A stretch of DNA of 26,572 bases, taken from NCBI GenBank assembly GCA_963712115.1, contig CAVQGX010000024.1:1-26572 (forward strand), read 5' to 3'. Below are positions 1,787 through 26,533 of the stretch, in pieces. This stretch comes from an uncultured delta proteobacterium (lineage in GTDB: Bacteria > Desulfobacterota > Syntrophobacteria > BM002). The first letter of the stretch is position 1. Each line of letters starts with the position of its first letter. A model generated the notes under the pieces. That model did not search any database. It had not been told where the DNA came from and saw only the letters and a list, made by a program, of their open reading frames with translations. The position numbers and the translations under genes were made by a program.

Positions 1787-2656
1787 CTAATTTCCGAGCT
1801 TGGCACGCAAGGAGCCAATGATAGCCATATTAAGGTCCAGTTTGATATCTTTTTCCGGCAGCCCAAAAGCCATACCAATGAGCTGGGGTAGGTAGAGAAC
1901 CGAAATTCTCAAGTCTTCAACTTTGGCCTGTGACACCTGTTTCTGATAGCTGTCCAGGTTCATTTGGCACATTGGACACACTGTAGCAATACAGTCGGCA
2001 CCTTTTGCCGCCTTCAACAGTTCACCTGTTAGTTCAAGGGCGATTTCTTTCTTAGTCGTCATCAACCCGGCACCGCAGCATTTGGCACCCATGGTCCAAG
2101 GATGCACTTTTGCGCCAAGGGCCTCGATTAACGGCTCCATACAGCGAGGCTGTTCGGGGTCGTCATAGCCCCCGTAAGGACGCAAGGCCTGACAACCGTA
2201 ATATGGAGCGATGCGCAGGCCTGACAGTTCGCGGTTTACCTTAGCCTTGATCATTTCTGCACCAATATCGGTGGCAATTACATCCAGCAAATGGCGAGAT
2301 CTGATGCCTCCCTGGTAGCTAAGGCCTTCCACATTTAAAGCCTCATTGATCTTGTCAAGCAGCCCCTCCTCCCGTTTTATGTGTTCATCCACCTTTCTCA
2401 GATTCAGATAGCAGGCACTGCAAGGGATTACGAAATCGCAGCCCATATCCGTCTGTTGGGCCAAGGCCAGGTTGCGGGCGGGCAGCACCAACGAGAGCAG
2501 TTCACTGATTGTCTCTGCTGCGCTGGCACCGCAGCAGGTCCAGTCCTCTAGTTCTATCAATTCTATTCCCAGTGCTTGCATGACCGCTTGGGTAGAGATG
2601 TTATATTCGAGCGCTGTCCCCTCCAAAGAACATCCGGAGTAATAGAAGTACTTCAT
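1787..2656 (-). CDS. hdrB: Heterodisulfide reductase subunit B (two CCG domains)
   Basis: YYSGCSL...WTCCGA...PCSACY and YYGCQ...KCCGAG...VCPMCQ; overlaps the hdrC stop by 4 nt. Confidence 0.93.
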   Translation of the reverse strand: MKYFYYSGCSLEGTALEYNISTQAVMQALGIELIELEDWTCCGASAAETISELLSLVLPARNLALAQQTDMGCDFVIPCSACYLNLRKVDEHIKREEGLLDKINEALNVEGLSYQGGIRSRHLLDVIATDIGAEMIKAKVNRELSGLRIAPYYGCQALRPYGGYDDPEQPRCMEPLIEALGAKVHPWTMGAKCCGAGLMTTKKEIALELTGELLKAAKGADCIATVCPMCQMNLDSYQKQVSQAKVEDLRISVLYLPQLIGMAFGLPEKDIKLDLNMAIIGSLRAKLGN

Positions 2657-3219
2657 GAACTTGCCTCCAGTTCTTTTACTTTGCGAAAGATGGCGTCCAA
2701 CCTCCCTGGCCCAAAGAATTTCGGCATTTCAGGGGAGACTTTTCCTTTCATCATAAGCCTCATACCCAAAGGGGTGAAACTTAAGGGGAGCATGGGACTC
2801 TTCATGGTTATAAAGTACCTGGCCATAAGCTCCATCTCCCTCACCCGCCCATAGCGTCTAACCGTGTCAAGAAAGGTCTGATAGAAACGTGCTCCCTTTT
2901 TTTCTGCTAGCCCCTTGGCTACAGCCAATTGCTTCAAACCATGAATGGTCTCTGTCAAAGGCAGGCCCCGTGGACAGCGCAAGGTGCAGTAATAGCAGCT
3001 TGAACAAAGGGAAAAGGTCCTGCTGTTAAAGATTTCATCCACCAAACCAAGTTGGACCATTCGCCACATTTGCCTAGGGGTGAAATCCATGGCATAAGCG
3101 CTACCGCAGGATCCGGTGCAGGTGCCGCACTGCATACAGGGACGCATATTCTCCCTAATAGAGTTCATCGGGTCCACAGCAGTGTGTTCCTCGGCTAGTT
3201 CTAGTTTCTCTTCGCTCAT
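2653..3219 (-). CDS. hdrC: Heterodisulfide reductase subunit C (2x[4Fe-4S])
   Basis: CMQCGTCTGSC and CSSCYYCTLRCP motifs; start placed at ATG 3219 (MSEEK) behind AAGGAG. Confidence 0.9.
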   Translation of the reverse strand: MSEEKLELAEEHTAVDPMNSIRENMRPCMQCGTCTGSCGSAYAMDFTPRQMWRMVQLGLVDEIFNSRTFSLCSSCYYCTLRCPRGLPLTETIHGLKQLAVAKGLAEKKGARFYQTFLDTVRRYGRVREMELMARYFITMKSPMLPLSFTPLGMRLMMKGKVSPEMPKFFGPGRLDAIFRKVKELEASS

Positions 3220-3266
3220 GGGATACTTTCTCCTTCGTTCCGACTCACCGCCTTTCGAGCGGCTCA

Positions 3267-3347
3267 GATGCCGGATACTTGATACTGGATACCTCAAACT
3301 GCCTTTTTCCTTTATCTAGCATCGAGCATCTGGTATCGAGTATCGAT
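3267..3347. repeat. Heptamer-periodic inverted repeat between hdrA-REC and hdrC
   Basis: GATGCCG GATACTT GATACTG GATACCT (3267-3294) faces TAGCATC GAGCATC TGGTATC GAGTATC (3317-3344). Confidence 0.7.
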
Positions 3348-6300
3348 TTAAAAAATCTCTTCCAATGCTGCATCAATCACAGAGAAGATCTGTTGATCCC
3401 GGAAGCCACGCAGCACCGAGGCGCTGTTGGGACAAACGGCCGCACAGGAACCACAACCCTGGCAGGCGAGCTCGTCCACCAAGACCTTCTCCTCATCCTC
3501 GTCTCGCCATCTGGCACCGTAAGGACAGGCAGTAATGCATTTCTCACAGAGAGAACAGAGGCTGTGACGCACCTCTGCTACGGTACTACCCGCCATTAAT
3601 CTCTCACTGCCAAGTATCCTCAAAGCGCGCTGCGCAGCTGCCTCGCTCATAGCGATGGTCTCGGTGATGGAACGAGGTGAATGGGCTATGCCGCATGTGA
3701 AGACCCCCTCTTTGATAAAGTCCACCGGCCGCCACTTGGATTCCGCCTCCTGAAAGAAGCCGTCCTCGTCGGTCTCAACCCCGAATATCTGCGCCAGTTT
3801 CTCTTGACCATTTGGAACGATGCCTGTACTGAGCACTAAAAGGTCGGACTCTAGCACCACCTCGCGACCGAGGATCCGATCTCTAACTCCCACCGACACG
3901 CTACCATTTTCCACTTCCACCCGGGGCTTGTCGTTTACCTCGTATTGGATGAAGATTACTCCGGCTTGGCGTGCTCGAGTGTAGTAGGCCTCCAAAAAGC
4001 CATAAGCCATGATATCCCGGTAGAGGATGTAAACGTCGATCTCTGGATTCTGTTCTTTCAAATAGAGTGCGCTTTTCAAAGCTGAAGCGCAACAGATTCT
4101 GCTGCAGTAATTACGGGGTTCCTCTCGGGAGTCCACACATTGGATAAAGGTCACCACATTCAGGTCTGCAGGATTAAGCGACTCAAATTGGAGTTTTTCC
4201 TCTAGTTGATGCTGGGTGACGATGGCTTCACTCTGCCCGTACGCATAGGACTCGGTTGCGGCTTCCCTTCCGCCTGTGGCCAGAATTGTCACTCCATGTT
4301 CCAAGGCCTCACCAACGCCATCTTCCTTTTCAATGGTAGTGCGAAATCGGCCGACCCTTCCATGGGAATGCAGCACTTGCGCCTTCAGGTAGACCTGAAT
4401 GTTTGGATGTTTTTTTACATTGGCAATCGTTTGCATAATAAGTTCCTGGGGTGAATTCCCCTCAAGAGTCCGATACAATTCGAGGAGATTGCCCCCCAGA
4501 GTCTCTGCCTTCTCTACGACGAACACTTCAAAGCCGTGGTCGGCAATGGCCAGTGCAGCGCTCATGCCACCGATGCCGCCACCCACTACCAAAGCCTTCT
4601 GCATCACTGGAATTGCTTTAGGTGACGAAGGGTCCATGCCTTTCAGCTTGCCGACCCCCATGGAAAGAGTTGTCCGTATTTCCCGGCTCACCTGCTCGGG
4701 GTTAGCTTCCCGACCCGGTAAAGCTGGTGTGCTTATATCGACCACCTCCATTAGTGCAGAACTCAGTCCTGCTTTTTCGCCCAGCTCTCGCAGCTTTCTC
4801 GTATAAACGTAAGGCAGGCAGGCTCCAACTAAAAGGCGATTTGCCGAACTGCCTTCAAGTGCTTCCTCCAGCTGACTCCAGCCTTCCCGGGTGCAGACCC
4901 GCTCAATCCATTGCACTTTGCCAACCGAGTCCAAGTCCGAAACTGCTTTTTCGATCTCTTTTAGTTTTGCTACTTGGGCCAGGCTGTCGCCACAGCTGCA
5001 CAGTGCTATCATGACCTTTGGTACCTCGCGGGAAACGTCGCGATACAAGGGTTGCGGCTTGGCCGCCTCTGCCAGGCTACCCCCCTTGGAATGGATAAGG
5101 CCGGACGCCCTCAATGAGGCGGAGCTTGCCTGAATCACTGATTCAGAGATATCCCGAAGCCCAGAGAATGATCCCCCTACCAGCACGCCCTCCTGGCTGG
5201 TGAGGCTTAACGAAAAAGGCTGCAACTGGCAAAAACCCCATGAATTGAGTTCAACTCCGGTCATTTCAGCCAGCGCTTCACTACCTGCCGGCGGCCTCTG
5301 GCCGGCGGCAAGCACCACCAAGTCAAAAATCTCCTCATGGGCCATACCGTCTATGTCCGTATAGTCGATTCTGGGATCGCCACCGAGACCAGCCTGCTCA
5401 ACCGAGTGGACTCTACTCCTCTGAAACCTGACACCATATTCCTTTTCGGCTCTATCCTTATAACGCTGGAAGTTCTTACCGTAGGTTCTCATGTCCATAT
5501 AGAATATGGCCGTCTCTACCTGACCGTTGCTGCGTTCCTTTGCCAGTAGAGCTTCTTTAATTGAAAACATGCAACAGATGGAAGAACAGTAGTCAGCGTT
5601 AGTTTGTATATCCCGGGAGCCGACACACTGGAGCCAGGCCACTTTGCGGATCTCTTTGCCGTCGCTGGGCCGTAACAGTTTCCCCTGATTGGGCCCGGTA
5701 CCACTGACAATCCTCTCATACTCTACACTTGTAACTACGTTGGGAATCTCACCGTAGCCATAGGTATTGAACCCTGTTGTACCTGGATCGAAGGATCCAA
5801 AGCCGGCCGCCAGAATTACCGCCCCCACTTCCAGTTCACGTTCGTCGGCGCGCTCTAGGTTTTCGTAGAGCTTTACCACCAGAGGGACAAGAGTCTCGGG
5901 GTCGAAGGGCTTCATCAGGTACTCCAAGGCTCCAATTTTCATTGCCTCAACAGCGGTCTCCACCGTGGCGTAGGCGGTCATCATCACCACGGCGAGGTCC
6001 GGGCGCATTTCCTTAGCTCGTTTCAACACTTCTACCCCATCCATATCGGGCATCTTGATATCTAAAAGCATCAAGTGGTAGTTTTGCTTTGCGAGTTTTT
6101 CCAGAGCGTCGGGTCCCGATTCGGCTGCATCCACCTGAAAGCCATCTTCAGTCAACCAATCCTTGAGGGAATCGCGCACTATGAGTTCATCGTCCACTAC
6201 CAAGATACGGAACTGCTTGCGAGCCTCCCAGCGGAAATCGATGGCCCCAGTGGGACAAATCTTTTCACACTCGCCGCACAAAGTGCAGGAGTCCAGGTCG

Positions 6301-6779
6301 ACCACGTAGTTATTAGGAATGTTGTGCGGCACCGGCAGATAGACCGCCTTTCTCTTGGTCAACCCGGCATTGAACTGGTCAGGCACCTCCACTGGACAGA
6401 CGCGGGAGCATTCGCCGCAACCGATGCAGCGTTCTGGATCCACCATAGTAGGCTTCTGTCGTAGGGTGACCAGGTATTTCCCTGGCTCACCCTCCATGGT
6501 TACCAATTCAGTGGAAAGCATGATCTCGATGTTCTCGTGGAATAACCCCTTACGTAAACAGTACTGCGAGGAGGAGTCGCGTTCCACCAGAGGAAGCATC
6601 TTGCACATGCCACAGTGGTCGCTGGGAAACTGGTAGTCCAGTTGTGTGAGGGTGCCGCCCAGGTTCGGTGCCCGGTCGATTAATTTCACGTGATAGCCTA
6701 CCTCCGCCAAATCCAAAGCGGAGCGGATACCGCTGATTCCGGCACCCACAACCAAGGCTGACCCGATTTTTTTTCTCAT
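3348..6779 (-). CDS. hdrA: HdrA-like flavoprotein with two FAD domains and an inserted response-regulator receiver domain
   Basis: FAD motifs VVGAGISG and VVGGGIGG; HdrA cluster motifs CVGSR...YCSSICC and CVDSR...YCSRICC; ferredoxin motifs CIGCGECSRVCP, CTLCGECEKICP, CSLCEKCITACP, CQGCGSCAAVCP; REC at ~5862-6212. Start at ATG 6779 behind GAGG. Confidence 0.92.
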   Translation of the reverse strand: MRKKIGSALVVGAGISGIRSALDLAEVGYHVKLIDRAPNLGGTLTQLDYQFPSDHCGMCKMLPLVERDSSSQYCLRKGLFHENIEIMLSTELVTMEGEPGKYLVTLRQKPTMVDPERCIGCGECSRVCPVEVPDQFNAGLTKRKAVYLPVPHNIPNNYVVDLDSCTLCGECEKICPTGAIDFRWEARKQFRILVVDDELIVRDSLKDWLTEDGFQVDAAESGPDALEKLAKQNYHLMLLDIKMPDMDGVEVLKRAKEMRPDLAVVMMTAYATVETAVEAMKIGALEYLMKPFDPETLVPLVVKLYENLERADERELEVGAVILAAGFGSFDPGTTGFNTYGYGEIPNVVTSVEYERIVSGTGPNQGKLLRPSDGKEIRKVAWLQCVGSRDIQTNADYCSSICCMFSIKEALLAKERSNGQVETAIFYMDMRTYGKNFQRYKDRAEKEYGVRFQRSRVHSVEQAGLGGDPRIDYTDIDGMAHEEIFDLVVLAAGQRPPAGSEALAEMTGVELNSWGFCQLQPFSLSLTSQEGVLVGGSFSGLRDISESVIQASSASLRASGLIHSKGGSLAEAAKPQPLYRDVSREVPKVMIALCSCGDSLAQVAKLKEIEKAVSDLDSVGKVQWIERVCTREGWSQLEEALEGSSANRLLVGACLPYVYTRKLRELGEKAGLSSALMEVVDISTPALPGREANPEQVSREIRTTLSMGVGKLKGMDPSSPKAIPVMQKALVVGGGIGGMSAALAIADHGFEVFVVEKAETLGGNLLELYRTLEGNSPQELIMQTIANVKKHPNIQVYLKAQVLHSHGRVGRFRTTIEKEDGVGEALEHGVTILATGGREAATESYAYGQSEAIVTQHQLEEKLQFESLNPADLNVVTFIQCVDSREEPRNYCSRICCASALKSALYLKEQNPEIDVYILYRDIMAYGFLEAYYTRARQAGVIFIQYEVNDKPRVEVENGSVSVGVRDRILGREVVLESDLLVLSTGIVPNGQEKLAQIFGVETDEDGFFQEAESKWRPVDFIKEGVFTCGIAHSPRSITETIAMSEAAAQRALRILGSERLMAGSTVAEVRHSLCSLCEKCITACPYGARWRDEDEEKVLVDELACQGCGSCAAVCPNSASVLRGFRDQQIFSVIDAALEEIF

Positions 6780-6856
6780 GATCAGAAACCTCACTAAGTT
6801 TGCCCTGTTGATTTAGATAGATTGACAATAAGTCCGGTCGTCAACCTTTCGCGCCT

Positions 6857-6960
6857 GTCCGTTGGTTGTAATGAGTGGTCAACTGTTTTCCACTTTATTC
6901 GTTGCCCGCTGCCGGTTGCTCCATGCTTTTATTCCTGCAACGGACGACTGACCACGGACA
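6857..6960. repeat. Heptamer-periodic inverted repeat between the fdhB-like gene and hdrA-REC
   Basis: TTCGTTG CCCGCTG CCGGTTG (6898-6918) faces CAACGGA CGACTGA CCACGGA (6938-6958); a further GTCCGTTG lies at 6857. Confidence 0.55.
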
Positions 6961-6968
6961 TACAATGT

Positions 6969-8114
6969 TTAGTGCGATTTAGCCACAACCTCCTGGAATT
7001 CATCTTCCCGGAATATTGACAGTGGTGGTTCGTCATCCAGGCTGCGTCCGGCTTCATAATCAAAGGCCTTCTGCGTGTAGTGCGCCATGGTTCGAAAAAT
7101 CTCCATTACCGGTATATTATTGGGACAGGCATTGGAACACTGGCCGCAGCCGATACAAGCCGTGCTCATGTGAGCTATGCGGGTTAAATGAAAGAAGACC
7201 GTGTCTGTGGGCATCTTTAGGATGCCCTTGCGTTTTGCCCATCTCAGATATTGCGAAGGTTCGTGGTCGAAGACATCGGTGAGAAAAACGCACTCTTTGC
7301 AATAGCAAACAGGGCAAGCCACCCGGCAATTGTAACAATTGACACAGTTACCGAGATAACTCACAAGCTTCTCCACGTCTGATGTGGCCTCACTGGTCTC
7401 GGCAAACATCTGGTCACGATATGCCAGCCGTTCTGCCAGCAGTTTTTCGATCTCTTTCCGCCGTTTCTCCGGCTCACTGGTAGAAGATAGTCCCAGGTTG
7501 TCCAATAAATCCTCTCCTTTAGGTGTATTGGCCTTCGCCAGCAGATGATCTTTGAAGTCTACACCCACTAAGCCAATGAGCACATCTGCGTTTTCCGGTA
7601 TGGGATACTCACAGGCCTTGCATGCAGGAGAAACTTCAAAGCCATCGCAAGCCGTTCCCTTGCCTTCTTGGATATTGCGGTAAAACCTTAAGGTGGCCTC
7701 CATGCCATTATCACCGGCAAAACCAGGATATTGGACATTGCTGTATGCGCCCAGACAATCCACCCCGATAAGGACGACGTCGTCGACTCTGCCTTGCTTC
7801 AATTTCACCAGCTCAATGAAGGCCCGGATCTCGCAGGGGCGGAGCACCACTGCCACCTTCCCCCCTAGAGGCTTTCTGGTAAGCTTTGAAACCACTTTGG
7901 CTACGTTAAGGGGAAAGACGGGTGCTAGTGGATCGGCAGCATCCAGCTTGTCCGGGTCCGTGACTAAAGTGGGCATTACTGCGTTTTTCGTGGGCAGGTG
8001 TTGGGCCACCATGAGGCTGTTGATTTCTCCGTCGCGAAGCATTGTCTTGAAAAATTCTTGTAGAGAACTGACCAGATTCTGATCCTTTATTGGTATCTTT
8101 ACTGTGGTTGCCAT
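6969..8114 (-). CDS. FdhB/FrhB-like protein (F420 dehydrogenase beta-subunit family) with C-terminal 2x[4Fe-4S]
   Basis: VVLRPCEIRAFIELVK...LIGVDCLG and PACKACEYP as in methanogen FdhB; CVNCYNCRVACPVCYCKEC and CIGCGQCSNACP. Confidence 0.8.
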   Translation of the reverse strand: MATTVKIPIKDQNLVSSLQEFFKTMLRDGEINSLMVAQHLPTKNAVMPTLVTDPDKLDAADPLAPVFPLNVAKVVSKLTRKPLGGKVAVVLRPCEIRAFIELVKLKQGRVDDVVLIGVDCLGAYSNVQYPGFAGDNGMEATLRFYRNIQEGKGTACDGFEVSPACKACEYPIPENADVLIGLVGVDFKDHLLAKANTPKGEDLLDNLGLSSTSEPEKRRKEIEKLLAERLAYRDQMFAETSEATSDVEKLVSYLGNCVNCYNCRVACPVCYCKECVFLTDVFDHEPSQYLRWAKRKGILKMPTDTVFFHLTRIAHMSTACIGCGQCSNACPNNIPVMEIFRTMAHYTQKAFDYEAGRSLDDEPPLSIFREDEFQEVVAKSH

Positions 8115-8153: not shown

Positions 8154-8576
8154 TTAAATGACCATCTGCTTCCGCACTTCATTGGGGCCTAACCCCTTGA
8201 CCTCAACCACCAACTCTTTCATGGTGTTGGCAAAGTCAATTCCCTCACTAGCTCCAATCCAGGTGAGCTTAAGTCTCCGCTGGTCAAAGCCGAAACGTGG
8301 TAGAATTTCTTTTAGCAATTTGACCCGCCGGCGAGCCTTGAGGTTGCCGTTGATGTAGTGGCAGTCGCCGGGATGGCAGCCACTGATAAGCACTGCATCT
8401 GCCCCTTCCAACAAGGCCTTGATTACATACTTGGGATCCACCATCCCGGTGCACATCATTCTGATCATCCGCACGTTGGGAGGCTGGGTTAACCTTGAGG
8501 TCCCTGCCAAATCCGCAGCGGTGTAGGTGCACCAGTTGCAAACGAAAGCGATTATTGTCGGCTCGAAGTCTGACAT
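8154..8576 (-). CDS. mvhD: MvhD/FlpD [2Fe-2S] adaptor subunit
   Basis: FVCNWCTY, MMCTGMVDP, GCHPGDCHY and WIGASEG motifs; GGAGG RBS. Confidence 0.95.
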   Translation of the reverse strand: MSDFEPTIIAFVCNWCTYTAADLAGTSRLTQPPNVRMIRMMCTGMVDPKYVIKALLEGADAVLISGCHPGDCHYINGNLKARRRVKLLKEILPRFGFDQRRLKLTWIGASEGIDFANTMKELVVEVKGLGPNEVRKQMVI

Positions 8577-8702: not shown

Positions 8703-11700
8703 CTAGCCAACTAAGTCGTCCAGGATTCCCTCGATCTCGGCGAAGATCTGCCTGCCGGTAAAATGGTTTATCCGTGCCGCCCCGCTGGGGCAGTGGCCGG
8801 CGCAACTCCCACAGCCCTTACATACTGCCTCGTTGATCACCGAAACGTTTCTGCGAGGATCGAACTCGATGGCCGAATAGGGACAGAGATCGATGCAGGC
8901 CTGACAACCGGCACACAAATCAGGATCAATCCAGGAGATGATGGAAGGAATTTCTACCTTCCCCCTGGTAGCCAGAGCCAGCGCTTGACCCGCAGCCCCA
9001 GCCGCATGGGAAACGGCGTCCGGAATGTCTTTGGGCCCCTGACAGGTCCCTGCAAGGAAAACCCCGTCAGTGGCGGTGGTGACCGGACCCAATTTGGGGT
9101 GCTCTTCCAGGAAGAACCCATCTCCTCCCTGGTTGATTCCAAACACCCGAGCCACCTCGGCCGCATCTTTGGTGGGCTCCATGGCCGTACAAAGAACTAC
9201 CATGTCCACTGGCACTCGTAGCTTTTTACCTATCAAGGTGTCTTCACTGACGATTATAAGTTTGCCCTTCTCCTCAGATCCTATGGCCTGGTCGGTGATC
9301 TCGGCAGGTTTTCCTCTTATGAAGGTAATCCCCTCTTCTTGCAGCCTACGGTAAAATTCCTCGTAACCTTTGCCGAAACAGCGCATGTCGATGTAGAAAT
9401 TGTAGACTTGCGTGTCATGCCCAGCCTTTTCCTTGATGAGATGGCCGTATTTGAGGGCATACATGCAGCAGACCCGCGAGCAGTATTCGTGGTAATTCAC
9501 ATCACGACTTCCCACGCAGTGGATGATGCCAACGCTGGCCGGCGACTTGCCATTCTTCATTACTATTTTGCCACCCGTGGGTCCCACAGCATTGTTCAGC
9601 CGCTCAAACTCCAGGCCGGTGTAGACCTCTGCGAACCGTCCATAACCGTACTGCTTGATTGGAGTGGGGTCTAGAGTCTGGAAGCCGGTAGCCATAATTA
9701 TGCTGCCCACCTTGACCTCAACTTCCTCCTCCACCATATTATGCTCGACAGCATTTCTCTCACAGGCTCGGACACATTCCATACACTCGCAACAGATACC
9801 GCAATTGATGCAGCGATTCGCCTCTCTTCTTGCCTCTTCTTCCTCGAACCCCAGGGCCACCTCGTCAAAATGAGATCTGCTCTCCTGGGGATCTCTGTGG
9901 GGCAGGTTGGCTCTTGCCTCCACCAGAAAATCTTCAGGGACTTCCCTCCATTCCTGCCCCGGTGGTTCCCTGGCTTCGACCTCCTCGGCATAAAGGGCTA
10001 GATCCTCCCCATTGATGTAGCGATGGATGGCTTCCACTGCTTTATGGCCAGAGGCCACAGCCTCAATAACCGTTGCCGGTCCACTCACAGAATCACCAGC
10101 ACTAAACACACCAGGGATGGCCGTCTGCATGGTGTGGGGATCTACCACCAAGGTGTTGCGCCTGGTGATCTCGAGGTCGCCCTCATTCACTGCCCAGTCC
10201 ACATCAGGCTGCTGGCCTATTGCTGGGATGACCGCATCGCACTCAATGACGAATTCAGAGCCCTCTACCGGGACCGGCCTCCGTCTACCGCTTTCATCTG
10301 GAGGTCCCAGTTCAGTGCGAATACACTCAAAGCCGCTTACCTTGCCGTTGGTGCCCACAATGCCGAGAGGAGCGGTAAGGTAATGGATCTCAACCCCTTC
10401 GGACAAGGCCCCCTCGATCTCTTCCGGATATGCCGGCATCTCTTCTCGGCTTCGTCGATAGACGATGCTCACTTGCTCACACCCCAAGCGTACTGCTGCC
10501 CGAGCAGCATCAATAGCAACATTACCACCACCGATAACTACTATCCTTTTGCCCGGCCTTGCACGGTCGCCCAGGTTGACTTCCCTGAGAAAATCAACCG
10601 CATCAATTACACCCTCGAAATCCTCCTCACCACTAATGCCCATTTTCAAGCTCCGGTGGGCGCCAATACCGAGGAAAACAGCCTTGTAACCTTCCGTCCT
10701 CAAATCTTCCAAAGTGAAATCAAATCCAAGTCTTTTGCCGGTCTGCGTTTCAATTCCCAGCCGCAATATGTTATTGATTTCCCGGTCTAGGATTTCTGGA
10801 GGAAGCCGGTAATCCGGTATACCCACGCGAAGCATGCCACCCAGCACTGGCAGGGCCTCAAAGATGGTAATCTGGTATCCCTTCAGTCGGAGATAGTAGG
10901 CCACTGCGAGCCCGGCTGGCCCGGATCCTACCACCGCAACCTTTTCAGGCCGCTCCTCGATCTCGGGCTTTGGTAGCTCTTCCAGATCCACCTGATCAGC
11001 TGCAAATCGTTTTAGATCCCTGATGGCCACCGCTTCATCCACTTCTGCCCGGCGACATTGAAATTCACATGGGTGGGGACATACTCGCCCCAACACCCCT
11101 GGCAAGGGTAGCCGTTCCATGATCAGCTGAATAGCTTCCTTGTATTTTCCTTGGCCAATAAGCTGGACATAACCCTGAACATTAATCGCTGCCGGGCAGG
11201 TAATGGTGCAAGGCGCCCGATCCTTTTTCTCAATGCAATAAGTAATGGGCACTGCCTGAGGGAAAAAGCGGAAAATAGCCTTGCGTTCACTTAGATGCTC
11301 ATCGAACTCACTGGGCACCGAAACCGGACACACTTCAGTGCATTGGCCGCAGCCCGTACATTGGTCCTCTCGGACATAGCGAGCTTTCCGCTTGATCTTG
11401 ACAGTGTAGTTGCCCACATAGCCATTCACCTCCGCCACTTCGCTGTAGGAAAAGAGGTGGATGTTGGGCTCCTGGGCCACAGCTACCGTTTTGGGCGTAG
11501 AAATACAGGCGGCGCAGTCCAGCGTGGGAAAGGTCTTGTCAAACTTCATCATGTGACCACCAATGGAGGGATTCCTCTCCACCAGGTAGACTTGGTGGCC
11601 TGATTTGGCGATGTCCAGCGCTGACTGGATTCCGGCAATGCCTGCACCAACCACCATTACATCAGGGTGGACACCCACCTCCCGGGTGGCCAGTCTCTGA

Positions 11701-12089
11701 TGTTGACTCACTCGGCTCACCGCCGCCGCCACTAGAGTTTTCGCCTTGCTGGTGGCCTCAGCCTTATCTTCGATTACCCAAGAACAGTGTTCACGAATAC
11801 AAGCCATCTGAAAAAGATAAGGGTTTATATCTGCTCGCTGGCAGGCTCCCTGGAAGGTCTTTTCATGGAGTCTGGGAGAGCAAGAGGCCACCACCACGCG
11901 GTTCAGACCCTGTTCATGAATGTCCTTTTGGATCATCTCTTGGCCAGGATCTGAACACATGAACTTGTAGTCCCGGGCAACCACAACATCTCTCAACCCC
12001 TTGGCAAACTCCGCCACCTCCTCGGGGTCAACCTTGCCAGCAATGTTGGTTCCACAATGACAAATGAACACGCCAATTTTCGCTGTCAT
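8703..12089 (-). CDS. hdrA: HdrA with inserted GltD/NfnB-like FAD/NAD(P)H module (HdrL-type)
   Basis: HdrA N-terminus GVFICHCGTNIA, CSPRLHE, REHCSWV, GAGIAG, DKTFPTLDC, CVGSR...YCSRVCCMYALK. The insert has CTITCP...CPHPCEFQC, GSGPAG, GGGNVAIDAAR and VYRRS. Confidence 0.93.
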   Translation of the reverse strand: MTAKIGVFICHCGTNIAGKVDPEEVAEFAKGLRDVVVARDYKFMCSDPGQEMIQKDIHEQGLNRVVVASCSPRLHEKTFQGACQRADINPYLFQMACIREHCSWVIEDKAEATSKAKTLVAAAVSRVSQHQRLATREVGVHPDVMVVGAGIAGIQSALDIAKSGHQVYLVERNPSIGGHMMKFDKTFPTLDCAACISTPKTVAVAQEPNIHLFSYSEVAEVNGYVGNYTVKIKRKARYVREDQCTGCGQCTEVCPVSVPSEFDEHLSERKAIFRFFPQAVPITYCIEKKDRAPCTITCPAAINVQGYVQLIGQGKYKEAIQLIMERLPLPGVLGRVCPHPCEFQCRRAEVDEAVAIRDLKRFAADQVDLEELPKPEIEERPEKVAVVGSGPAGLAVAYYLRLKGYQITIFEALPVLGGMLRVGIPDYRLPPEILDREINNILRLGIETQTGKRLGFDFTLEDLRTEGYKAVFLGIGAHRSLKMGISGEEDFEGVIDAVDFLREVNLGDRARPGKRIVVIGGGNVAIDAARAAVRLGCEQVSIVYRRSREEMPAYPEEIEGALSEGVEIHYLTAPLGIVGTNGKVSGFECIRTELGPPDESGRRRPVPVEGSEFVIECDAVIPAIGQQPDVDWAVNEGDLEITRRNTLVVDPHTMQTAIPGVFSAGDSVSGPATVIEAVASGHKAVEAIHRYINGEDLALYAEEVEAREPPGQEWREVPEDFLVEARANLPHRDPQESRSHFDEVALGFEEEEARREANRCINCGICCECMECVRACERNAVEHNMVEEEVEVKVGSIIMATGFQTLDPTPIKQYGYGRFAEVYTGLEFERLNNAVGPTGGKIVMKNGKSPASVGIIHCVGSRDVNYHEYCSRVCCMYALKYGHLIKEKAGHDTQVYNFYIDMRCFGKGYEEFYRRLQEEGITFIRGKPAEITDQAIGSEEKGKLIIVSEDTLIGKKLRVPVDMVVLCTAMEPTKDAAEVARVFGINQGGDGFFLEEHPKLGPVTTATDGVFLAGTCQGPKDIPDAVSHAAGAAGQALALATRGKVEIPSIISWIDPDLCAGCQACIDLCPYSAIEFDPRRNVSVINEAVCKGCGSCAGHCPSGAARINHFTGRQIFAEIEGILDDLVG

Positions 12090-12131: not shown

Positions 12132-12530
12132 CTAACAGCCGACACACTTTTCAAGAATCTGGAGGAGCTCCTCGGTCTCTGGAGGCTTCTCTATATATGC
12201 GGTCGGCTCTGGAACCTTTTGTCCCCTATAGGTATTCAGTACTTGTTGGGAATGGAAAAAGGTCTTTTTGGCTATGGCCGACAGCATAATCACCGGAATA
12301 TCCTTGAGCTCCTCGTCAGTTTTTAGTTCTCGATACATTTGAATCCCGCCCTCTCGGGGCATCATCACATCTAGGATGATTGCCGCCGGCTTTTTCTCCC
12401 TGGCTTTCAGAATGCCCTCTTCTCCGTTGACGGCGATAATCGGTTTATAGCCACTGGTCTCCAGCAGAGTGGTGATGAAGGTGCGCATGTCCAGCTCATC
12501 ATCCACCACCAAGATCCTCTTTTTCTTCAT
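12132..12530 (-). CDS. Single-domain response regulator
   Basis: ILVVDDE, IILDVMMP, IMLSA, YIEKP; no output domain. Confidence 0.92.
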   Translation of the reverse strand: MKKKRILVVDDELDMRTFITTLLETSGYKPIIAVNGEEGILKAREKKPAAIILDVMMPREGGIQMYRELKTDEELKDIPVIMLSAIAKKTFFHSQQVLNTYRGQKVPEPTAYIEKPPETEELLQILEKCVGC

Positions 12531-12644
12531 GATATTCTCCTTCTAACTGGAATCATTTCTTTCTTATTTAATAGCTTGGCCTTGTGACCGTACTCTGCTA
12601 ATCAGCATCACCTGCCAACCTGACCAAGACTGTTCTCTGCCGAC

Positions 12645-13127
12645 TCATCCGGGGAGCTTGAAGGCATGCTCTGGGTTGCGGATGGCCATTACGTGGCAGT
12701 GCGCCCGCCTTGCTACATTCTCAACCGTGCTGCCAAAGGTCTGCTTATCCAACTCAGAGCTGCCGGAAGCACCCATAACAATGAAATCCACCTTGTGCTC
12801 TCTGGCGTAACGAACAATCTCCACAAAGGGAACCCCGACTCGAACTGCGAAGACAGCCTGATTGCACTTTTCCAGCCTGCTTCCATATTTGGACTTAAGG
12901 TCTTCCGCTGCTTGATTCATAAGCTCATCGTCTGCTACCTGTTCCTCCTTATTCGGGTCGACATACTCGTCCACCACGTGCCGCATGTACTTGTATCCCG
13001 AGTGCAGCACATGAAGCAGATGAAGCTTAGCGTTATATCGCTGGCAGAAGTCTACGGCATGATGGAATGCCATCTCCGCCTCCTCAGAAAAATCACTGCA
13101 ATACAGAATGTTCTTATAATCAATCAT
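12645..13127 (-). CDS. Universal stress protein (UspA family)
   Basis: KNILYCSDFSE; IVMGASG...FGSTVENVARRAHCHV nucleotide-binding-type motif. Confidence 0.92.
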   Translation of the reverse strand: MIDYKNILYCSDFSEEAEMAFHHAVDFCQRYNAKLHLLHVLHSGYKYMRHVVDEYVDPNKEEQVADDELMNQAAEDLKSKYGSRLEKCNQAVFAVRVGVPFVEIVRYAREHKVDFIVMGASGSSELDKQTFGSTVENVARRAHCHVMAIRNPEHAFKLPG

Positions 13128-14752
13128 GACTTCCTCCTGTCTGCTTGGGCCACGACCGAGTGCGATTCTTGCTTCTCATTTTCCCCTCCCTCATATTCAT
13201 AAAGGTCTTCCTTATCCTTGCTGGGTCCCGAGGGCAGCAATAGACGAAATAGTGAGCCCCTGCCAGGCTCAGATTCAACCTCTATGCGCCCTTGATGTTC
13301 ACGGGTAATTTTCTGGACGTTCATCAAGCCCAAACCGGTTCCATCGGCTCCCTTGGTGCTGAAGAAATTGGTGAAGATCTTTTCCTTATTGTTCTCCTCA
13401 ATTCCGCAACCGTTATCTTCCACCTCGAAACAGACTGCCCAGTCCGGGTGGCGGCGAGTGCGCACCCTAACCTGCCCCTGTTCATGGCCGCAGATTTCTG
13501 GCCAGCAGGCGTCAATGGCATTATTGATCAGGTTGACCAAACATTGATGAATACCGCTCACATCCATTGCTACCGGTTCCAACCCCTCTGTGGCTTCCAA
13601 GGTCAGATTAACCTTGAACTCCTCTGCCCGCGTTTTCAAGAGCTCCACAACCTCTGCAGCCACCTTATTGGCTTCTGCCAAGCGGTATTCAGGTTTCCGT
13701 TCCTTGGCGTAGGTGAGCAGGTCCATGGCCAGGCTGGAGATCTTGCCAACATTGCGCTGGACCATGTCCCAGCCATTCTGGAGATAGTCCTGGTTTGATA
13801 GCTCGAAGCCCTTATTGACCACAAACATCCCGCCTTTCAGACCACCCACTATATTTTTTATGGCATGGGCAATAGTCGTCGAGGTCTGGCCGATGGCAGC
13901 CAGCCGCTCTGATTGCACCAGCCGCTTTTCCAAACGACGAATTTCGCGCAAGTCTTGAAAGAAGGTGACACAGCCCACCTTTTGGCCTTCTTGTCGTAGG
14001 ATTGTGTGAGTTAACCGAATTGGAATTCTTTTTCCTTCCCGAGACCGGATGGTTGTATCCAGATGACTACTACCCTCCTCACTTGTGGGGTCTCCCTCTT
14101 CTCTCTCCCGGCTGAGCCAACGATCAACTATCTCCTTGTCATAGAGGTCTTCTAAGGTGAGCCGACCCACCACCTCATCCTCCCCATACCCAGTCAGCCG
14201 CTGGGCGCTGTCGTTGAAAATAACAACCTTTCTCTCTTCATCTCCAGCCACAATGCCATCCAAGGAATTGTCGATGAGGTTGGCTTGAAAGTCGCTGATT
14301 CGCTGGATTTCAGCAGTAGCCTCCTGGACCTTTAGTTCTAGGTTCTCCGTGTAATCACGAAGCTGCCTCTTCAGAGAGATTTTTTCCTCGGCCCGTTTTA
14401 GAGAAATGAACAGGGCCTCGTCATGGATCGGCTTGGTAATAAAATCAGACGCCTCCAACTGTAGGGCGCTGATGGCCAGTTCCATCTCGCCGTGGCCGGT
14501 GATGATTATCACTTCGGAATCGGTCTTCATTTCCTTTATGCGCCGAAGCACTCCAATACCGTCCATCCCCGGCATCTTGATATCAGTAAGAACAAGCGGT
14601 GGTTGCTCCCGTTCGAAAATTTCCAACCCCTGCTCGCCGCTCTCGGCAGTCCAAACCACATAGCCGGCATCCTTAAGGGCAATCGACATGACCTTTCTGA
14701 TGCCCTCTTCGTCGTCGATAAGGAGGACGCGCTTTAAATTGGCTTCAGCCAC
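13124..14752 (-). CDS. Hybrid cytoplasmic histidine kinase (REC-PAS-HisKA-HATPase)
   Basis: REC LLIDDE...LTDIKMP...ITGH...TKP; H-box AHAIKN; N-box NLINNAIDA; DNGCG, FFSTK, GTGLGL. Start reassigned to GTG 14752 behind GGAGG, overlapping the upstream stop. Confidence 0.9.
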   Translation of the reverse strand: MAEANLKRVLLIDDEEGIRKVMSIALKDAGYVVWTAESGEQGLEIFEREQPPLVLTDIKMPGMDGIGVLRRIKEMKTDSEVIIITGHGEMELAISALQLEASDFITKPIHDEALFISLKRAEEKISLKRQLRDYTENLELKVQEATAEIQRISDFQANLIDNSLDGIVAGDEERKVVIFNDSAQRLTGYGEDEVVGRLTLEDLYDKEIVDRWLSREREEGDPTSEEGSSHLDTTIRSREGKRIPIRLTHTILRQEGQKVGCVTFFQDLREIRRLEKRLVQSERLAAIGQTSTTIAHAIKNIVGGLKGGMFVVNKGFELSNQDYLQNGWDMVQRNVGKISSLAMDLLTYAKERKPEYRLAEANKVAAEVVELLKTRAEEFKVNLTLEATEGLEPVAMDVSGIHQCLVNLINNAIDACWPEICGHEQGQVRVRTRRHPDWAVCFEVEDNGCGIEENNKEKIFTNFFSTKGADGTGLGLMNVQKITREHQGRIEVESEPGRGSLFRLLLPSGPSKDKEDLYEYEGGENEKQESHSVVAQADRRKS

Positions 14753-17078
14753 CGACCACCTCCATCGGCTCCCGGGTTTCCTTTGCCGCCGCTGGAAAAC
14801 TGATGATAAATGTGGTCCCTCGACCCTCAACACTTTGCACTTCTATGATGCCGTCATAGTCCCGTACTATGCCAAAGCTTATTGAGAGGCCTAGCCCGGT
14901 TCCCTTCCCCACCGGTTTGGTGGTAAAGAAAGGTTCAAATATCTTCTCCTTCACTGCTTCGCTCATGCCAGGTCCGGTATCGGTTACGTTCACCACCACC
15001 TGGTCGCCTGCAGTTTTTGAGGAGATCCTCAGTACTTTTTCAACATCCTGTCCTGCTCGCTCCTCCTTCTCATCCATAGCGTCACGGGCGTTCATGATGA
15101 GGTTGAGAAACACTTGCTCCAACCGGTTCCGATCACCTTTGATGGATGGCAACTCTTTGTCCAAGTCCAACTCTACCTTGATGCCATGCAACTCCAACTG
15201 CCGGCCCAGAACCGTGAAAGTCCCGGAAATACAATCATTGAGTTGCACATTTACTTTGCGAATATCTGTTTTCCGGCCAAATTGGCGCAGGTGATTTATG
15301 ATGAGGGAGGCACGGTCCACCTGACTGTCCATTTCGTCTGCTAACTCCCGAAGAATATTAGGAGACACTGGCTCGTTTCGATCTATCTTCTTGGTGAGAA
15401 AACTGGCGGAGGTCTTTATCACTGAAAGGGGCTGATTTAACTCATGAGCAACACCGGCCGACATCTCGCCCAAGGTGGCCATTTTGCTTGCCTGAATTAG
15501 TTGCTCTTCGGTCTTAACCCGCTCGGTCACATCAGAGGTGGTAACAATCACGGTATCCTGGCCAATGTCTTTAAGGCTGGAGTAACGTATGTTCACCATT
15601 ATAGATTCAGCTTTTTTAGTGTGCTGTCTCACCTTGTAGACTGCCCCTTCTCTCTCCCACGGAACTTTCCCGAGGCGATCCCATTCTTGGGGTTCAGCTA
15701 GCTCCAGAAAGCTCTTCCCGAGGATTTCGTTTCTTTCGAAACCATAGGAATTTAGGGCTCGTTCGTTTGCGTCCTTAATCTCCAAAGTTTCCGGGTTTAG
15801 AACAAAAATGGGGTTGGGATCACTGTTAAACAGGGTCCGGTACTTTTCTTCAGATCTCTTCAGCTCCTGTTCCAGCAGACGCACCTGGGTGATATCGGTT
15901 GCCATCTCCATGGCAGCCACTACACTACCCTCCTCGTCAAAAATGGGGGAGGTAAAAGCAAGAACATAGGCGAGGGTGCCATCTTTGCGTAGCACAACCT
16001 CCTCGCTGTAATGGGGCTGGCCATCCTGGAAGGTCCTTTCAACTGGGCAGACGGGGCATTTCTCTTCCCTGCCCTTGTAAGCCCGGTAACAGTATTCCCC
16101 TTGGCAGTCGCCAAAGCGCTCCTCGAAGACTCTGTTTACCTGGGTGATGCGAAAGTCCCGGTTCTGGACGCTGATCTGACAGGGAACCTCTGTAAAGAGG
16201 GTCTGGTATTCCTCCTTGCTTTTCTGGTAGGCGTAGGCCTGGTCTCTGATGTTTTTCCGCATCTCGTCGAAGGAATGGGAGAGATCGCCGATCTCATCTT
16301 GAGTAATGGCCTTCACCTCCTGCTCGTAGTCACCTCTGGCGAGTTGCTTGGTAGCTGAAACCAGACGGCGAATGGGTCGGTTAACGAAATAGACGATGCA
16401 GCCGGCCACAATAGCGGTGACCCCCAGAAAGATGAGGCTGGCAAAAAAGATGATCTTTTGCTTGGTGGCAAGGATTTCTTGATCCAGAGGTTCCAAAGAA
16501 AGACCAATATCCAGAACGCCAAGGACTGTCTTTTCCTTTGGGTGGTAGTGACATGTTGCCTGCCAGCAACTGGTCTCATTATATATGGGATTGATCATCC
16601 CCAGGACTCGATTTCCTGCCGAGCTTCGATAGATTCGGGTGCGGTCGCTCATGCTCAGCCGTTCCAGGGGCTGGTCCCGCCGGTGGCAAACATAACACGC
16701 CTCTGCCTGTAGATCTACATTAGTACCGATATCCTCTTTTGTATTGGCAAACATGATCTCGCCGGTCTTGTTGAATACCCGGATCTTCTCCACCCCCGGC
16801 TGGGCGCCGATGGCCTCAATAATCTTGTGCAAACTCTCCCGCTGGTTCTTGAGCATGCTGTAGTGGGTGCCGCGCTTCACCGTGTCGCTAAACTGGCTGA
16901 CACTCATGACCATTCGCTCAAACGCCTGTTTTTCCTGGAGCGATACCAGATAAAAAGTGAGGGCAAGCACCGCAACCAGGAAAATCAGACCCACCGCCAG
17001 ACCTAATTTAAAACTGAGGCTTCGTCTCAACCTTCTAAGAAGGTGTAGACCTGAGTTCTCTTTGGCTGACTCACTCAT
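14745..17078 (-). CDS. Membrane sensor histidine kinase (2 TM, extracytoplasmic CxxCH domain, HAMP, 2 PAS, HisKA, HATPase)
   Basis: Two hydrophobic segments flank CYVCH and CWQATCH; HAMP PIRRLV...DEIGDL; H-box AHELNQPL; NLIMNARDA, DTGPG, FEPFFTTK, GTGLGL. ATG 17078 behind GGAG is preferred. Confidence 0.92.
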   Translation of the reverse strand: MSESAKENSGLHLLRRLRRSLSFKLGLAVGLIFLVAVLALTFYLVSLQEKQAFERMVMSVSQFSDTVKRGTHYSMLKNQRESLHKIIEAIGAQPGVEKIRVFNKTGEIMFANTKEDIGTNVDLQAEACYVCHRRDQPLERLSMSDRTRIYRSSAGNRVLGMINPIYNETSCWQATCHYHPKEKTVLGVLDIGLSLEPLDQEILATKQKIIFFASLIFLGVTAIVAGCIVYFVNRPIRRLVSATKQLARGDYEQEVKAITQDEIGDLSHSFDEMRKNIRDQAYAYQKSKEEYQTLFTEVPCQISVQNRDFRITQVNRVFEERFGDCQGEYCYRAYKGREEKCPVCPVERTFQDGQPHYSEEVVLRKDGTLAYVLAFTSPIFDEEGSVVAAMEMATDITQVRLLEQELKRSEEKYRTLFNSDPNPIFVLNPETLEIKDANERALNSYGFERNEILGKSFLELAEPQEWDRLGKVPWEREGAVYKVRQHTKKAESIMVNIRYSSLKDIGQDTVIVTTSDVTERVKTEEQLIQASKMATLGEMSAGVAHELNQPLSVIKTSASFLTKKIDRNEPVSPNILRELADEMDSQVDRASLIINHLRQFGRKTDIRKVNVQLNDCISGTFTVLGRQLELHGIKVELDLDKELPSIKGDRNRLEQVFLNLIMNARDAMDEKEERAGQDVEKVLRISSKTAGDQVVVNVTDTGPGMSEAVKEKIFEPFFTTKPVGKGTGLGLSISFGIVRDYDGIIEVQSVEGRGTTFIISFPAAAKETREPMEVVGG

Positions 17079-17114
17079 CCGAAACACTCCAATGGGTTTG
17101 TGTCTAGATCATTA

Positions 17115-17130
17115 TGCTAGGGTCATGCCA
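17115..17130 (-). promoter_or_regulatory. sigma54 (-24/-12) promoter of the kinase-hdr operon
   Basis: Minus strand TGGCATGACCCTAGCA = GG-N10-GC, 37 bp upstream of the kinase ATG and next to a sigma54 activator gene. Confidence 0.75.
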
Positions 17131-25363: not shown

Positions 25364-25606
25364 GGTGTTACCTCACTAGGGAAAATCGCCGATAGCAACT
25401 ATGGCATAATAACACGCTTGAGCCTAATCGGCCTAATCGACCCAAAAATTCATAACAGTTTACAGAGAAAACGTATATTATTAGAATAATTCTTGACTTG
25501 TCCTGATCGTGGATTCCCCCCGCGATTCCTCTCGGCACCGCGGATGCTTTTACAACAACCGCTTAGTCAACAGCCCATCTTCTTGAATTGAGCTGTGAGT
25601 GTAAAC

Positions 25607-26533
25607 ATGAGCAGAAAAAACGATACCAGCGAGAGAGCTTGGAGCTCTGACAAGGACCTCGCCGGAATGGTTGTCCGTGTGGCCGTGGCAGCCCAGGCTA
25701 ATGCCATAATCTGCGCCACCGAGACCGGAAAGTTCGCTAAGCATCTGCACGCATTTTCAGAGCAGGTCAAACTAATTGCCGCCACCACAAACAGAGAAAC
25801 ATACGATGACCTGGTTCAGGGTGGTCTGGAAGCCATACGGCTGCCGCTTCGTGCCATCGACAAGTATAGCCAGGTTCGCCATATTGTCTCAGTGGCGCTC
25901 AAAGCCAAAACCGTTTCCATTGGAGATTTCGTCGTCTGTGCAATAGGCCGCGAAGTTTACCACGATGAAGGGACCCTTATAGTCCTGACCGATGTGGAAT
26001 CGAGCATCGAATACCTCGCAGTATCCGACCTCCTCAAGCTCACCGACGGCATCCGGCCAACAGTACTGGAGGTTGCCGTAGAGATAGCCTGCAAAATAGG
26101 TCGGGCGGCTCGGCGCGGCACCCGTCTTGGGGCCATCTTCATGCTAGGTGACTCCATCAAGGTCCTTGAGGGTTCCAAACAGCTTATCCCCAACCCTTTC
26201 CAGGGCCACGATGATGCTAACCGTAGGCTTACAAACCCCGACATCCAAAGCGCCCTCGTCGAGCTGGCCAAGCTCGATGGCGCCTTTGTTGTCCGCGGCG
26301 ACGGGTTCATCCAAACAGCGGGGACTTTCTTGGCTACTACCGACGCAGAGATCAAATTGCCTTCCGGCCTTGGAGCTCGACACTATGCGGCTGCTGCCGT
26401 AACCATGCGCACCGATGCTACAGCGGTTGTGGTCTCAGCAACCGATGGTAATGTCCGAGCCTTCTCCAACGGAACCATGGTCCTACAAATCGATCCCGAC
26501 GTACCCCATGGCCCCATCGCTAAAGAGACATGA
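25607..26533 (+). CDS. dacZ: Diadenylate cyclase, DacZ/CdaZ-like (N-terminal pyruvate-kinase-C-like domain + DisA_N/DAC domain)
   Basis: GAIFMLGD, NPFQGH, ELAKLDGAFVV (DGA), GLGARHYAAA (RHR-type motif), VVVSATDG; ATG 25607 preferred over GTG 25595. Confidence 0.85.
   Translation: MSRKNDTSERAWSSDKDLAGMVVRVAVAAQANAIICATETGKFAKHLHAFSEQVKLIAATTNRETYDDLVQGGLEAIRLPLRAIDKYSQVRHIVSVALKAKTVSIGDFVVCAIGREVYHDEGTLIVLTDVESSIEYLAVSDLLKLTDGIRPTVLEVAVEIACKIGRAARRGTRLGAIFMLGDSIKVLEGSKQLIPNPFQGHDDANRRLTNPDIQSALVELAKLDGAFVVRGDGFIQTAGTFLATTDAEIKLPSGLGARHYAAAAVTMRTDATAVVVSATDGNVRAFSNGTMVLQIDPDVPHGPIAKET

Follow-up and report, generated by a model that had tools for sequence, protein, structure and literature searches.

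A response-regulator receiver domain embedded in a tandem HdrA-type flavoprotein of an uncultured Syntrophobacteria bacterium

The receiver-bearing gene

The DNA considered here is a stretch of 26,572 nucleotides (in the following, the window), namely positions 1 to 26,572 of contig CAVQGX010000024.1 (GenBank assembly GCA_963712115.1) from an uncultured delta proteobacterium of the Syntrophobacteria (Desulfobacterota), whose metagenome-type genome comprises 70 contigs with 6% contamination and contains dsrA and dsrC. On its minus strand, a single open frame at 3348-6794 contains the entire protein under study, an HdrA-type flavoprotein with a response-regulator receiver domain (REC) in its interior. 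Translation from the ATG at 6779, the methionine at which homologues start as well, yields 1143 amino acids (3351..6779, minus strand; stop codon 3348-3350), and the open reading frame, Pfam, NCBIfam and alignment to solved chains from the PDB jointly identify the product as a fused-dimer (type II) HdrA with an embedded receiver. An intact, in-frame receiver inside an HdrA-type protein had been claimed in an earlier note made from the letters of the DNA, and all motifs quoted there could be located. Pfam family Response_reg (PF00072) matches residues 192-298 over model positions 1-107 of 111 (E 3.1e-31), and the score of 108.3 bits against a cut-off of 30.2 places the domain inside the family profile and, as judged by profile comparison, far above chance. 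Besides Response_reg, Pfam finds four 4Fe-4S motifs and two FAD/NAD Rossmann starts in the protein. Solved chains of NtrC1, Spo0F and CheY match the embedded receiver at E 1e-16 to 1e-23 with NtrC1-type chains being closest, and the best receiver match in NCBIfam likewise falls on NtrC/AtoC/ZraR-type regulators.

All canonical receiver residues are present, comprising the acidic pair D196/D197 within VVDDE (194-198), D240 within LLDIKMP (238-244), T268 within MMTAY (266-270) and K290 within LMKPF (288-292), plus Y287. The codon of the predicted phospho-acceptor Asp240 was read as GAT on the minus strand at 6060..6062, exactly where the earlier note had put it when counting from ATG 6779. Its span for the domain, 5862-6212, corresponds to residues 190-306; the whole insert including two linkers covers residues 189-313 (5841..6215, minus strand). 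It is preceded by the cysteine motif CTLCGEC (165-171) and followed by ELEVGAV (315-321).

Architecture of the host protein

By alignment to solved HdrA chains, two HdrA-like modules are joined in one chain, module 1 covering residues 1-580 and module 2 residues 581-1143. Module 1 consists of a thioredoxin-reductase-like FAD domain with an inserted ferredoxin domain, without N-terminal and C-terminal domains, while module 2 comprises an N-terminal domain, a second FAD domain without inserted ferredoxin and a C-terminal ferredoxin domain. This fused-dimer layout is seen in four stretches on solved HdrA, as query residues 7-182 and 310-459 fall on chain residues 145-459 and, for module 2, 587-818 on 4-236 and 957-1139 on 465-650. 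On the minus strand, the first part of the FAD domain of module 1 (residues 1-105; 6465..6779) holds GAGISG at 12-17 and the Cys56/Cys59 pair, as judged from PDB alignment and conservation. The inserted ferredoxin domain follows (residues 106-188; 6216..6464; Pfam and PDB alignment) with cysteines C118/121/124/128 and C165/168/171/175. Behind the receiver insert, the remaining FAD domain (residues 314-580; 5040..5840) carries Glu355, Lys408 and the cluster ligands C385/C398/C402/C403, which were assigned by alignment and with the help of PMC12054007. Module 2 starts with an HdrA N-terminal-type domain (residues 581-725; 4605..5039; PDB alignment and conservation) with Cys594/596/629/654 and continues with the second FAD domain (residues 726-1065; 3585..4604; GGGIGG at 733-738, Lys902) and the C-terminal ferredoxin domain with two four-cysteine motifs (residues 1066-1143; 3351..3584), both assigned by Pfam and PDB alignment.

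In the alignment to chain 5odc_A, query residues 91-185 correspond to chain residues 219-313 and query residues 315-460 to chain residues 318-460. Hence, about 125 residues, the receiver and its linkers, replace an HdrA linker of about 4 residues, and the alignment places the receiver behind the inserted ferredoxin domain of module 1 and ahead of the next FAD-domain strand in that module. The inserted ferredoxin domain is described as the low-potential exit in solved HdrA (PMC13518236) and in BamE (10.64898/2026.04.10.717634). With regard to catalysis, an alignment of 100 relatives shows no exception for Cys56, Cys59, Glu355 and Lys408 of module 1; the cluster cysteines are kept in 98-100 of them and Lys902 of module 2 in 79. 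The features of an HdrA-type bifurcating flavoprotein are thus all found, i.e., the FAD-binding GxGxxG, the Glu/Lys pair and the cysteine ligands of the clusters, and E355/K408 correspond to E356/K409 of HdrA according to the alignment to the solved chain and PMC12054007, in which Glu356 and Lys409 are described as its bifurcation residues. As the invariant residues of module 1 are described as marks of the bifurcating flavin (PMC12054007; 10.64898/2026.04.10.717634), the receiver is located in the bifurcating module and, as read from the alignment, directly behind the domain predicted to hand out the low-potential electron.

The earlier note had spoken simply of HdrA. While the HdrA type was borne out, a simple HdrA was not, since the host is a fused-dimer type II protein resembling BamE, which is encoded in an HdrL-type operon of a dsrA/dsrC-bearing bacterium. 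Its scores also stay below the NCBIfam cut-offs (704.8 vs 1100 bits for HdrA2 and 545.4 vs 1400 bits for HdrA, in four stretches), and by its profile scores the host is HdrA-like and distinct from methanogen-type HdrA.

Conservation of the receiver chemistry

Among 121 close sequences, Asp197, Thr268 and Tyr287 occur in all 121, and Asp240 (with one gap) and Lys290 in 120 each. For a broader sampling, 1.8 billion cluster representatives were scanned, and 15 of the best 150 matches contain the receiver. At 50% identity clustering, there are 13 complete receiver-bearing representatives, which are 43-56% identical overall. Twelve of them retain the acidic pair, the acceptor aspartate, the threonine and the lysine, and so do six of six further loci from the class survey described below, three of them from single-contig genomes. 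Conservation of acceptor D, T and K in homologues, which the earlier note had named as a check, is thereby confirmed for close and distant relatives alike. The exception is representative P0123, where DP, Gly and His stand at three catalytic sites and the second acidic residue, the threonine and the lysine are lost. In the receiver-only tree its branch measures 3.4-4.0, compared to end branches of 0.07-0.47 for the others, which amounts to roughly tenfold faster evolution. Kept catalytic residues on the one hand and a fast-evolving P0123 on the other hand form the pattern expected if selection maintains the phospho-chemistry, and the embedded domain is probably a phosphorylatable receiver under selection.

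Within the receiver, conservation is highest in beta1 (0.90), alpha4 (0.85) and alpha1 (0.75), and alpha5 reaches 0.51. Both linkers vary in sequence (about 0.4), but their length differs only in two representatives of one sublineage. P0123 retains its degenerate receiver at the same site (residues about 185-308) and offers a natural pseudo-receiver control.

Distribution and reality of the fusion

In a search with residues 100-420, PF00072 was present in 120 of the 120 best-listed homologues, which were drawn from JGI, ENA, NCBI and Logan assemblies, are 71-99% identical and mostly comprise about 1140 residues. Databases name the protein 'response regulator', 'FAD-dependent oxidoreductase' or 'heterodisulfide reductase subunit A'. 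Twelve named genome records carry the junction, eleven of them whole or up to residue 177 of 181 and one (L018) only through residue 126; all are metagenome-assembled genomes labelled Deltaproteobacteria, Syntrophobacteria, Syntrophobacterales, Syntrophobacteraceae, Desulfobacteraceae or Desulfobacterium sp. Across the phylum, which was sampled evenly, the whole junction lies in a frame of at least 1150 residues in 10 of 400 other genomes, and the other 25 matching genomes hit the receiver only. Within the class of the window, the junction was found in 64 of 122 genomes (that of the window included) at E 1e-45 or better, with some of these matches being partial (G405, G435, G489, G490). By family, the carriers amount to 18/21 in f1, 45/81 in f4 and 0/19 in four others, counts that come from genomes of one class and are not independent samples. 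Three carriers outside the genus of the window are single-contig genomes (G492, G504, G506), as are three more within the genus.

An assembly chimera, which the earlier note had named as a possible pitfall, or a gene-calling artefact would be conceivable for a fragmented, partly contaminated metagenome-type genome of this kind. Against it stand the continuous frame without any step in composition (GC content is flat at 0.52-0.55 over the insert), the receiver in every one of the best-listed homologues from four sources, the class-wide junction including single-contig genomes outside the genus, and a 981-base contig from an independent run that spans the C-terminal boundary of the receiver. An artefact is refuted on these grounds, the residual probability being negligible, and the fusion is almost certainly real and conserved.

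Origin and evolution of the insert

All trees stem from quick IQ-TREE or FastTree searches. In the receiver-only tree, a single clade with support 96 unites 15 of 16 embedded receivers, and in the host tree with receiver columns removed, all receiver-bearing proteins fall into one clade in both FastTree (71 rows, support 100) and a quick IQ-TREE search (32 rows, support 95). On these trees, the embedded receivers share a single origin. An origin from the free receiver of the operon (REC1, see below) was rejected, as the free receivers share 36-40% identity with REC1 but only about 27-34% with the embedded ones, from which they stand apart in the tree. Two receiver-less representatives, P0124 and P0125, are nested within the receiver-bearing host clade; strict monophyly of the receiver-bearing rows was rejected by the approximately unbiased (AU) test at p 0.013, a weak result for a group that was named after seeing the tree. 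The cluster of P0125 has 20 members, and 9 of the 15 listed are full-length at 1014 residues, so that the receiver-less form is real. The simplest history compatible with the trees comprises one gain, two clean losses and one decay, and the nested receiver-less members indicate that the receiver is dispensable for catalysis.

The genome of the window encodes further tandem HdrA paralogues of about 40% identity, of which two lack an insert (1012 and 1019 residues) and two carry a GltD insert (1489 and 1498 residues). Among seven other long relatives scanned, five have a GltD-type insert, one has extra ferredoxin motifs and one no added domain. Judging from these proteins, the inserted-ferredoxin region is a hot spot for domain insertion, with the receiver being the sole signalling domain seen there. 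The GltD module enters between the two cluster motifs, both in the window (8703-12089, minus strand) and in the paralogues of the same genome (C20:40840-45306, C11:3897-8390), while the receiver enters after the second motif, which gives two distinct entry points in one small domain. Two paralogues (C25:13682-16738 and C11:3897-8390, both on the minus strand) have an in-frame TGA at the second cysteine of the flavin-near pair, which probably encodes selenocysteine in both. Selenocysteine has been described for methanogen HdrA.

The operon and its signalling genes

Reading along the minus strand, the locus encodes a sigma-54 activator, a membrane kinase, a hybrid kinase, a universal stress protein (Usp), the single-domain response regulator REC1, HdrL, MvhD, an FdhB-like protein, the receiver-bearing HdrA, HdrC, HdrB and a TetR-family protein. 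Downstream of the receiver-bearing gene lie the genes of the HdrC-like iron-sulfur subunit (2653..3297) and of the HdrB-like subunit with two CCG domains (1787..2656). Upstream of it, an FrhB/FdhB-like iron-sulfur protein (6969..8114), an MvhD-like protein of the FlpD family (8154..8576) and HdrL (8703..12089), i.e., an HdrA with an inserted GltD-type NAD(P)H module (type III), are encoded. A signalling block that travels with the operon then follows, comprising REC1 (12132..12530), Usp (12645..13127), a REC-PAS-HATPase hybrid kinase (13124..14833) and a membrane histidine kinase (14745..17087) with two transmembrane segments, a periplasmic CxxCH domain, HAMP, PAS, HisKA and HATPase domains, which is a candidate phospho-donor. 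The sigma-54 activator (17347..19092) has PAS inputs and lacks a receiver domain, and no receiver with a DNA-binding domain is encoded at the window locus.

The order hdrL-mvhD-fdhB-like-hdrA-hdrC-hdrB is found in the window and in 12 of 22 related receiver-bearing loci in which hdrL is present or reached. Of 28 receiver-bearing loci, 16 include a kinase-type gene in the stretch retrieved; the other 12 comprise 6 loci shorter than 13 kb. The block of kinase, hybrid kinase, Usp and REC1 (12132-17087 in the window) is located upstream in the window, L014 and L009, and downstream in L130 and L132. Sister operons of the same gene order with a receiver-less HdrA exist as well (L110-L113 with 46-49% identity and L117 with 43%). 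In L110-L113 (genomes G024, G195, G065 and G101), two adjacent REC1-type receivers lie at about 6200-7100 or 12300-13200, and have a long insert between beta4 and beta5; the genes of a kinase and a sigma-54 activator come next. As free subunits, the paired receivers may have an effect on the Hdr complex.

In the membrane kinase (14745-17087), the two membrane segments flank a periplasmic domain of about 160 residues with a CxxCH heme-c motif, which is kept in four of four kinase orthologues with captured N-terminus, three of them also having Cx4CH. In Pfam, this domain resembles the Mcp40H-20 sensor weakly and below threshold (E 3.9e-5), and the first cytoplasmic PAS region contains a Cys-rich stretch. 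Taken together, the domain composition suggests a periplasmic redox or ligand sensor. Between the activator gene and the kinase start, a sigma-54-like -24/-12 element with correctly spaced GG and GC is located at 17115-17130 (minus strand); window-wide, the same pattern occurs 15 times against 16.2 expected and is not significant.

Comparison with known systems

A close known counterpart in terms of layout is BamE from the class II benzoyl-CoA reductase of Geobacter metallireducens, which likewise joins two thioredoxin-reductase-like modules in one chain. Its N-terminal module TrxR1 is described to hold the bifurcating FAD together with Lys280 and Cys59-Cys62, and its inserted ferredoxin domain to feed the low-potential output (10.64898/2026.04.10.717634). 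Likened by this published description, Cys56/Cys59 and Lys408 of the window protein match Cys59-Cys62 and Lys280 of BamE. In contrast to the window protein, no receiver domain is mentioned for BamE in the accessible part of that source, and the partners differ as well, being BamBCDFGHI for BamE and HdrL, MvhD, the FdhB-like protein and HdrCB in the window, where none of the neighbours is bamB, bamC, bamD, bamG, bamH or bamI. Mobility of the inserted ferredoxin domain, a premise of the earlier note, agrees with BamE, in which the distance from E3 to E5, the latter in the inserted ferredoxin domain, is reported to shift from 23 to 12 Angstrom between two states (10.64898/2026.04.10.717634). The premise is backed only in part, as for the methanogen super-assembly the N-terminal domain and the MvhD arm are described as the mobile parts and the inserted ferredoxin domain as the low-potential exit (PMC13518236).

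According to the classification in PMC12054007, a type II HdrA unites two thioredoxin reductase domains in one protein, while type III (HdrL) carries a foreign GltD domain at the inserted-ferredoxin region, for which it is proposed that it keeps ferredoxin out and gives the exit a new use. A redox insert between the two motifs in type III contrasts with a signalling insert after the second cluster motif in the window HdrA. The terms 'response regulator' and 'receiver' are absent from the main text of this survey of 1,152 archaeal HdrA sequences (PMC12054007), and the main text of another survey makes no mention of a receiver (PMC6085437). The same gene set and order as in the window is described for the HdrABC/HdrL cluster Sfum_0819-0824 of Syntrophobacter fumaroxidans, whose proteins were reported to be detected only with sulfate and for which electron confurcation towards DsrC has been proposed (PMC5947623). 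Locus VIII of Desulfobacterium autotrophicum again shows this set and order, with regulator and kinase genes drawn nearby (PMC2702500). In the article texts, supplements aside, PMC5947623 uses neither 'receiver' nor 'response regulator', and PMC2702500 mentions no HdrA receiver.

Fusions of receivers with metabolic enzymes, thioredoxin reductase among them, are described as a recognised class (PMC5847659). Response regulators with enzymatic output, however, carry the receiver as an N-terminal appendage, whereas in the window it is inserted within a bifurcating flavoprotein with several cofactors, and the putative output is an electron path. CheB is an example of relief of occlusion by a receiver. 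The earlier note had rated the fusion as a candidate for an undescribed system, which holds insofar as no description of an HdrA-receiver fusion was found in the searched literature, with subscription papers and supplements outside its reach; the protein itself is common in databases and receiver-enzyme fusions as such are known. A receiver governing an enzyme is therefore a known idea, and its embedding in a tandem HdrA is the part for which no description was found.

A possible switch on the low-potential arm

To our knowledge, the choice between bifurcating, confurcating and idling is largely unexplained, and known control is transcriptional or thermodynamic. In our preferred interpretation, the low-potential arm of the bifurcating enzyme would be switched by phosphorylation, and the sequence evidence leaves the chances for this about even. 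The gene product would be the bifurcating flavoprotein of an HdrL-MvhD-FdhB-like-HdrA-HdrCB complex in sulfate-reducing or syntrophic Desulfobacterota, in which one ancient insertion put an NtrC-type receiver into the short linker tying the ferredoxin arm to the FAD domain. The receiver is predicted to be a working phospho-acceptor, with Asp240 assisted by Asp196/Asp197, Thr268 and Lys290, and its phospho-donors are probably the operon-travelling histidine kinases, as assigned by gene neighbourhood only. Phosphorylation of Asp240 would alter the alpha4-beta5-alpha5 face, and the altered face may act via the fixed-length linkers or through direct contacts, thereby moving the ferredoxin arm, masking or unmasking it, or changing the pairing of the complex. 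The masking option is modelled on the proposal put forward for the GltD insert of type III HdrA (PMC12054007). As a result, the ferredoxin branch would be coupled to, or uncoupled from, the NAD(H) branch and the DsrC-type disulfide branch without new transcription. A gate at this point is physically reasonable in view of the shift from 23 to 12 Angstrom at the inserted ferredoxin clusters of BamE. That phosphorylation controls electron flow or assembly in one of these ways stands at even chances or slightly below.

Several observations weigh against such a switch. All five receiver-less sister operons encode a kinase, two REC1-type genes and a sigma-54 activator, and 4 of 15 more distant tandem-HdrA loci also have a kinase-type gene nearby. 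The two-component linkage is thus a trait of the operon type that predates the insertion and also occurs without it, and the kinases may serve the free receivers only. Moreover, 176 of 401 genomes in the phylum sample encode the sensor region of the kinase, which makes its presence or absence uninformative. Two losses and one decay of the receiver imply that a switch, if there is one, is not essential. In L009, L010, L011 and L130, a TetR-family gene or a kinase instead of hdrC/hdrB follows the receiver-bearing hdrA; the partner set therefore varies, and the high-potential partner may differ or be encoded elsewhere in these loci. In terms of expression, contigs from two RNA libraries cover 5850-6136 within the receiver at 90-99% likeness (most pieces at least 95%), but this coverage is partial, with no listed piece spanning the whole stretch, and is not proof of transcription; conversely, the uncovered parts in X4, X22 and X20 carry no information. 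Finally, the literature reached contains no biochemical evidence for a phosphorylated Hdr-type enzyme.

Other roles of the receiver have to be weighed against the switch. It might be a real phospho-acceptor without catalytic effect, i.e., a phosphate sink or docking point for which the abundant Hdr complex serves as scaffold. The locus does have several receivers (REC1, that of the hybrid kinase and that of HdrA) for one or two kinases, and many receivers per kinase are typical of branched or sink-type networks. The network evidently works without the insert in the sister operons, which keep the same kinase and free-receiver genes, and the receiver was lost twice while the enzyme was kept. A sink, on the other hand, needs no fixed site inside an enzyme with near-constant linker lengths, but the insert site is constant over 43-99% sequence identity, and no helix is better conserved than alpha4 (0.85), which belongs to the usual output face. 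A sink or docking role is hence considered unlikely, yet it is to be taken seriously. Alternatively, the receiver could mainly have a structural role in dimerisation or partner binding, and its aspartate chemistry would then be a relic, as is the case in pseudo-receivers. NtrC-type receivers dimerise, the closest solved receivers are of the NtrC1 type, and the degenerate receiver kept in place in P0123 hints that the fold alone may have some use. The same P0123 argues the other way by evolving roughly tenfold faster, and the retention of five catalytic residues in 12 of 13 distant representatives and nearly all of the 121 close sequences is at odds with a relic, so that a mainly structural role appears improbable.

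Signalling might also run in the reverse direction, with the redox state of clusters or flavin setting (de)phosphorylation of the receiver and the enzyme reporting ferredoxin and NADH pools to the two-component network. The receiver abuts the inserted ferredoxin domain, solved relatives are described to shift conformation with redox state (PMC13518236; 10.64898/2026.04.10.717634), and the adjacent hybrid kinase with its own receiver and PAS domain would allow a multi-step relay. However, no precedent was found in the literature reached, and among the window genes there is no output, DNA-binding or other, that would lie downstream of such a relay. In known architectures, moreover, receivers serve as inputs, and we rate reverse signalling as a quite improbable explanation.

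The phosphorylation switch, in contrast, can be taken a step further, although only tentatively. The membrane kinase with its putative periplasmic heme-c sensor might read the redox or donor state of the periplasm, phosphorylate Asp240 and thereby couple or uncouple ferredoxin from NADH and DsrC within seconds; as part of the same doubtful proposal, this could be the first post-translational, signal-controlled gate on bifurcation or confurcation, common in two Syntrophobacteria-type families. If true, a kinase could switch a redox enzyme directly through a receiver at its low-potential exit. Such control would matter, as flavin-based electron bifurcation sets the energy economy of anaerobes near the thermodynamic limit. 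Among the putative confurcating systems that a model syntroph has under sulfate reduction, the complex type of the carriers is reported to be the most abundant (PMC5947623). Given this abundance and a junction in about half of the sampled class genomes, any effect would bear on sediment sulfate reduction and syntrophy. The conserved receiver in the exit arm offers a concrete handle in the form of one aspartate, one enzyme and adjacent candidate kinases, and natural controls exist in lineages with a lost or decayed receiver.

Further features of the window

Scans of the window for sigma-70 promoters and terminators stayed at chance level, and an Rfam scan gave no match. Two genes on the plus strand are unrelated to the receiver-bearing HdrA. 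The first one (22289-24322) encodes an amino-acid permease fused to TrkA-N/TrkA-C domains, and the other one (25595-26533) combines a pyruvate-kinase C-terminal-type domain with a DisA-type diadenylate cyclase domain.

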